Translations under genes and position numbers: made by a program
NCBI RefSeq assembly: GCF_024700885.2
Contig: NZ_CP117016.1
Length of the DNA: 64,000 bases
DNA from: Escherichia coli
GTDB lineage: Bacteria; Pseudomonadota; Gammaproteobacteria; Enterobacterales; Enterobacteriaceae
Strand: one strand, 5' to 3'
In this document: positions 24,899 through 24,946 of the stretch, in pieces
Position numbering within the stretch: the first letter of the stretch is position 1
How the letters are laid out: every line of letters begins with the position of its first letter
The notes under the pieces: generated by a model
Seen by the model: only the letters and a program-made list of their open reading frames with translations
The model's database searches: none
Told to the model about the DNA's origin: nothing

Positions 24899-24914
24899 TA
24901 ACTCTAAAGTGGTA
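24899..24914. promoter_or_regulatory. Candidate NarL/NarP 7-2-7 site in the nrfA promoter
   Basis: taactct-aa-agtggta fits the TACYYMT-NN-AKRRGTA inverted heptamers and is centred 33 bp upstream of the FNR site, as described for pnrf. Confidence 0.45.
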
Positions 24915-24932
24915 TTTTACATGCACTTACAA

Positions 24933-24946
24933 TTGATTAAAGACAA
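24933..24946. promoter_or_regulatory. Candidate FNR site of the nrfA promoter
   Basis: ttgat-taaa-gacaa, an imperfect TTGAT-N4-ATCAA, about 135 bp upstream of the nrfA ATG. Confidence 0.5.

Follow-up and report, generated by a model that had tools for sequence, protein, structure and literature searches.

The acs-nrfA intergenic region of Escherichia coli: regulator sites of the nrf promoter and the divergent acs promoters

The intergenic region and its two regulator motifs

The window, that is, the whole 64,000-nt stretch of Escherichia coli DNA analysed here, contains the acs-nrfA intergenic region at positions 24682-25073 (392 bp). The two genes that border it are transcribed divergently:

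22723-24681, minus strand: acs, acetyl-CoA synthetase, assigned from the K-12 annotation and a protein family match; yjcH and actP precede it
25074-26510, plus strand: nrfA, cytochrome c552 nitrite reductase, assigned from NCBIfam equivalogs and the K-12 annotation; nrfB, nrfC and nrfD follow it

The region is present in 5413 of 5426 complete E. coli genomes. It is 100% identical to that of E. coli strain 7/2 and shares 391 of its 392 bases with K-12 MG1655; the sole difference lies at position 24981, which is T in the window and C in K-12. The locus is the same as that of the K-12 promoter pnrf, known from the fragments pnrf53 and pnrf97 of the Busby, Cole and Browning laboratories.

Two motifs and the spacer between them occupy the middle of the region, where the window reads ...gactTAACTCTAAAGTGGTAttttacatgcacttacaaTTGATTAAAGACAAcatt...:

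24899-24914, unstranded: NarL/NarP 7-2-7 site TAACTCTAAAGTGGTA (TAACTCT-AA-AGTGGTA), heptamers at 24899-24905 and 24908-24914, centre 24906.5
24915-24932, unstranded: inter-site spacer, the region of the repressing IHF site I and of the acsP1 -10 region
24933-24946, unstranded: FNR site TTGATTAAAGACAA (TTGAT-TAAA-GACAA), centre 24939.5

A preliminary description of this DNA had placed an imperfect FNR site and a 7-2-7 heptamer pair here, 33 bp apart from centre to centre. Both sequences are read at these positions, and the distance from 24906.5 to 24939.5 is 33.0 bp. The FNR-like site agrees with TTGAT-N4-ATCAA at 8 of the 10 specified positions; the heptamers, inverted and separated by 2 bp, each agree with TACYYMT at 6 of 7.

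Taken singly, the motifs are no better than chance. With up to two mismatches allowed, the 64-kb window holds 43 FNR-like sites against 29 expected, and a single 7-2-7 site, the one at 24899-24914, against 2.1 expected. It is the 33-bp pairing that is rare: the expectation for both kinds of motif with centres at exactly this distance is 0.0033 per 64 kb, and such a pair turned up in 1 of 300 simulated sequences. Among 5414 E. coli records, 4869 carry an exact copy of the 61-mer drawn across both regulator sites.

Start site, core promoter and regulators

The pnrf start was mapped by others in K-12, and its position in the window is carried over from the numbering of Godfrey et al. 2017 (PMC5434802). 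That paper, a later one by the laboratory that did the earlier pnrf work, summarises two decades of nrf promoter experiments; it describes a single promoter, pnrf, and is our source for the site positions, with FNR centred at -41.5 and a common site for NarL and NarP at -74.5. Two anchors tie its numbering to the window. The substitution p+102A, named and numbered there, turns the AGG of nrfA codon 3 into AGA at its last base, 25082, which sets +1 at 24981. Position 24967, in the TG at 24966-67, is then the -14 G of the extended -10, and the -10 change of strain O157:H7 falls at 24974, i.e. at -7. The core promoter and the translational start region then carry the following elements:

24966-24974, plus strand: extended -10 and -10 hexamer, with TG at 24966-67 and TACACA at 24969-24974 (-12 to -7), of the K-12 type
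24981, plus strand: pnrf transcription start (+1) in the published K-12 numbering; T here, C in K-12
25081-25083 (+101 to +103), plus strand: GGA motif for CsrA binding, near the beginning of the nrfA reading frame, taken from PMC5434802 and mapped here

With +1 at 24981 the FNR site is centred exactly at -41.5 and the 7-2-7 site exactly at -74.5, its heptamers at -79 and -70. A start near 24981 had been predicted from the motifs before; 24939.5 + 41.5 gives 24981, and the two independent anchors agree with it, so that the published K-12 numbering fits an FNR site at -41.5 with its centre at 24939/24940. The nrfA ATG at 25074 is +94, and the leader between 24981 and this ATG measures 93 nt, as had been anticipated. 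The 7-2-7 site, the FNR site, the spacer, the extended -10, the leader apart from +1 and the CsrA GGA are identical in the window and in K-12 pnrf. A simple sigma-70 promoter scan of 24600-25150 returned no promoter; this empty result is uninformative because pnrf depends on activators and has no -35 element.

What is said here of protein binding, of the mapped start and of IHF displacement comes from the literature, on strains other than that of the window. An FNR ChIP-seq peak lies at nrfABCDEFG, with a site at -41.5 and direct activation, backed by transcriptomics (Myers et al. 2013, PMC3688515); FNR binding in K-12 is also documented by gel shift (PMC5434802). FNR at the single -41.5 site suffices for maximal induction of pnrf, and nrf expression is wholly dependent on it, falling from 5119 units in the wild type to 54 and 36 in two fnr mutants (PMC5434802). 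IHF and Fis repress pnrf, Fis I overlapping the -10, and CsrA binds a GGA motif around the nrfA start codon (PMC5434802). NarL or NarP bound at -74.5 displaces IHF from IHF I, which results in nitrite induction (PMC5434802; restated in the review PMC12285233). The architecture proposed in the preliminary description, a class II FNR site with an upstream NarL/NarP site, is borne out: -41.5 and -74.5 agree with PMC5434802, and the FNR site agrees with PMC3688515 as well. One refinement is called for, since according to the literature NarL/NarP relieves repression by IHF and is not a conventional upstream activator.

Scans for FNR, NarL, IHF and CRP across 24682-25073, which had been proposed as a check, recover the heptamers at -79 and -70, IHF-like matches at -49/-48, and CRP-like sites at -69.5 and -122.5 from acsP2. 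One IHF-like consensus match (24926-24939) overlaps the spacer. Fis gives one further match of note:

24959-24973, unstranded: Fis consensus match, centre -15, overlapping the -10 at the position described for Fis I

This site matches GNNYRNNWNNYRNNC perfectly; the region contains four such matches (two sites, each on both strands) against 0.95 expected. A half-site scan for NsrR over 24682-25073 yielded chance-level matches only, and no NsrR site is assigned. Most consensus scans of the region stay at chance density, the other weak FNR-like, IHF-like and heptamer matches equalling the shuffled expectation: scan matches are meaningful only where they coincide with published positions.

The same region also holds the promoters of acs. 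Olvera et al. 2009 (PMC2759082, Table 1) give the sequences of acsP1 and acsP2, with starts at -224 and -20 from the acs ATG. Both are found in the window, together with two sites upstream of acsP2:

24905-24943, minus strand: acsP1, exact match to the published 39-mer, start 24905, 224 nt upstream of the acs ATG (24681 + 224)
24701-24739, minus strand: acsP2, the main acs promoter, exact match, start 24701, 20 nt upstream of the acs ATG (24681 + 20)
24763-24778, unstranded: CRP-like site, centre exactly -69.5 from the acsP2 start 24701
24817-24830, unstranded: CRP/FNR-like site, centre exactly -122.5 from acsP2; it also scores as FNR-like

The positions -69.5 and -122.5 fit those that we take to be CRP I and CRP II, the two sites that Beatty et al. 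reportedly placed at acsP2 in 2003. The acsP1 start (24905) falls within the NarL/NarP 7-2-7 site; counted from this start, the FNR site has its centre at -34.5 and covers the acsP1 -35 region. That the divergent acs promoters would have to fit into the same intergenic region had been noted before; both published sequences do map there, in an arrangement tighter than that remark implied. In K-12, acsP1 is weak, lies within the -87 to +10 pnrf fragment and is completely repressed by FNR (PMC5434802). The place of the FNR site over the acsP1 -35 region explains this complete repression: the site is common to pnrf and to the acsP1 -35, so FNR shuts acsP1 off while activating pnrf.

We therefore read the feature as the E. 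coli nrf operon promoter pnrf, with a control region common to it and the divergent acs promoters, at a probability of about 0.96. In the mechanism that this reading implies, FNR would bind, when oxygen is lacking, the imperfect inverted repeat 24933-24946, which has the class II position for a start at 24981. From -41.5 it would recruit RNA polymerase to a weak promoter that lacks a usable -35 and has an extended -10 (TG-n-TACACA). Repression of pnrf would come from IHF, located between the motifs, and from Fis over the -10. Once nitrite or a low level of nitrate is present, NarL or NarP in phosphorylated form would bind 24899-24914 and displace IHF, giving full induction. The FNR site would meanwhile also cover the -35 region of acsP1, which would be off while pnrf is on. 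From the near-identity to K-12, which is observed directly, we infer that the strain of the window behaves like K-12 despite its T instead of C at +1.

The motifs, their spacing, the start and the leader length belong to an already known promoter, dissected since 1994. Their value here is one of calibration: a tool-free reading of the raw sequence recovered real regulatory architecture to the base. Two other promoters of nitrate and nitrite respiration in E. coli, nir and nap, resemble pnrf in that a 7-2-7 heptamer pair lies upstream of a class II FNR site. They serve other genes and have other site positions, and only nrf overlaps a divergent promoter (acsP1) in this way. At nir, NarL also works by remodelling of a repressive nucleoprotein complex, according to the title of reference 177 in PMC12285233.

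Conservation across genera and competing explanations

We located nrfA in other genomes through the haem-1 motif CXXCK of NrfA, taking one genome per species, and obtained at least 120 loci. Among the loci listed, 108 had enough upstream sequence, and the 330 bp upstream of nrfA were searched in each with no spacing assumed. Three spacings dominate among these listed loci, one per clade: +33, +51 and -28. The spacing of +33 is that of the Enterobacteriaceae, where it occurs in at least 12 loci besides the window (Escherichia, Salmonella, Citrobacter, an Enterobacter sp. and Trabulsiella); shuffled controls reach 0.1 loci at this value. In Vibrio the 7-2-7 site lies 51 bp upstream of an FNR/CRP-family repeat (at least 25 loci), in contrast to the 33 bp upstream of the Enterobacteriaceae, and in Shewanella it lies 28 bp downstream of such a repeat (at least 25 loci). 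For Shewanella nrfA, CRP rather than FNR has been reported as the main activator (PMC12285233, Table 1). The FNR site of related genera reads TTGATTAAAAACAA, which agrees with the consensus at 9 of 10 positions.

A footprint alignment was made from 12 Enterobacteriaceae sequences of five genera, with identity given as the mean to the window. These 12 sequences are related by descent, and what they provide is a footprint and not a set of independent observations. Mean identity reaches 96% for the 7-2-7 site, 95.5% for the FNR site, 95% for the spacer between them and 89% for the extended -10 and -10. In the 85 bp upstream of the 7-2-7 site it drops to 37%, and the 12 sequences are there essentially unalignable: alignable conservation begins abruptly at the first base of the 7-2-7 site. 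The spacer is invariant in 14 of its 18 columns, and no indel occurs between 24899 and 24974 in any of the 12 sequences; the 60 gap characters counted in the alignment are five all-gap columns left behind by a removed row, that of Pluralibacter gergoviae. A sharp boundary and a fixed spacing are what functional sites would predict.

The upstream region of nrfA in Pluralibacter gergoviae is unrelated to that of the other Enterobacteriaceae. Its 330 bp scanned contain no FNR-like site with up to two mismatches, which suggests that the nrfA control region may have been replaced in this species.

Four other accounts of the block compete with its reading as pnrf. The simplest holds that degenerate consensus matches co-occur by chance in AT-rich intergenic DNA and have no function, and it draws on the frequency of each motif alone, at or below chance, and on the neighbouring weak FNR-like, IHF-like and heptamer matches, which sit at the shuffled expectation. 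It has to face the 0.0033 pairings expected per 64 kb, a position relative to nrfA identical to that in the experimentally characterised K-12 promoter, the sharp cross-genus footprint with its invariant spacing, and the FNR ChIP-seq signal at the nrf promoter (PMC3688515); chance is refuted for practical purposes. Nearly as improbable is that the block owes its conservation to coding constraint on a small open reading frame and not to regulatory sites:

24921-24977, plus strand: ytcB, an 18-codon ORF in the K-12 annotation; it lies upstream of the pnrf start and overlaps the FNR site as well as the -10

The frame is annotated in K-12 and intact in the window, and both the FNR site and the -10 lie within its span. 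Yet 7 of the 12 sequences have ATA instead of ATG as its start codon, and its stop positions vary. The variable columns are distributed 5/7/7 over the three codon positions, with no excess at the third, and conservation already sets in at the 7-2-7 site, 22 bp before the ORF. Lying upstream of the pnrf start, ytcB would need another transcript, and a literature search for the name brought up only an unrelated Bacillus subtilis gene. We rejected coding constraint on ytcB, which is not kept as coding sequence outside a few taxa.

The two remaining accounts accept the sites and dispute their role. One makes control of the divergent acsP1 their main task and the effect on nrfA secondary. The acsP1 start inside the 7-2-7 site, the FNR site at -34.5 from it and the full repression of acsP1 by FNR all speak for such control. 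Against it, the main acs promoter is acsP2, acsP1 being weak; nrf expression depends entirely on FNR; and the two effects coexist, so that the action on acsP1 is an added function and not an alternative; we consider it very unlikely as a replacement for the reading as pnrf. The other has NarL or NarP at -74.5 activate directly, touching RNA polymerase together with FNR, rather than remove a repressor; this is how the architecture of the preliminary description would read if taken literally. Its geometry is compatible with contact, the site and the class II activator being separated by about three turns of the helix, and the spacing is strictly conserved. But FNR alone gives maximal induction and NarL/NarP displaces IHF from IHF I (PMC5434802, PMC12285233), and the spacer with its IHF-like site equals the two flanking sites in conservation. 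Of the four this is the least improbable, though still unlikely, and we retain relief of IHF repression at pnrf.

The +1 allele and the nrfA leader

The T at 24981 is a minority allele: the exact 61-mer that carries it occurs in 126 of 5412 E. coli records. Both K-12 and O157:H7 have C, and between genera the column varies among T, C and G. In K-12 a substitution to A at +1 raised expression only slightly (PMC5434802), and we expect the T allele to be nearly neutral.

The enterohaemorrhagic (EHEC) strain O157:H7 has the same regulator sites and spacing as the window. It differs in its -10, which is TACACT through an A-to-T change at -7 (24974) and is of a stronger type, whereas the window and K-12 have TACACA. 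This change confers FNR-independent activity and resistance to repression by Fis (PMC5434802). In the text of PMC5434802 the EHEC hexamer appears as TATACT, while the O157:H7 genome reads TACACT; the printed form is probably a slip in the paper.

Downstream of the start, the leader contains two hairpins and a repeat tract:

24981-25073, plus strand: nrfA leader, 93 nt, with a GGA at 25061-25063
24990-25000 / 25011-25021, plus strand: leader hairpin 1
25021-25035, plus strand: perfect (AAN)5 tract, flanked by the two hairpins
25036-25043 / 25047-25054, plus strand: leader hairpin 2

Tracts of the AAN type are a kind of motif that Hfq binds. In nearly all of the 12 Enterobacteriaceae sequences the pairing of both hairpins is kept, through GC/GU/AU changes. 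An Rfam search of 24600-25200, with E-values up to 1, gave no match. The role of the long conserved nrfA leader is described as unclear in PMC5434802, and by ribosome profiling nrfA is a validated target of RyhB, repressed at the level of translation (PMC4666370). The hairpins and the (AAN)5 tract, upstream of the CsrA-bound start region, might form an uncharacterised post-transcriptional control platform, with Hfq and the sRNA RyhB among the candidates to act on it; separately, the +1 T might alter where transcription starts or how strong the promoter is, much as the -7 change alters the promoter of EHEC. Both suggestions are tentative, and we think them rather doubtful than probable. The rare +1 allele, the conserved leader hairpins and the clade-specific spacing in Vibrio and Shewanella are small leads for the study of nitrite respiration.

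On the minus strand, 25054-25026 consists of hairpin 2 followed by GTTTTTATTG and scores like an intrinsic terminator. Such a site would end transcripts running antisense to nrfA ahead of the acs promoters; the score may just as well be a chance by-product of the plus-strand hairpin and the A-tract upstream of it.
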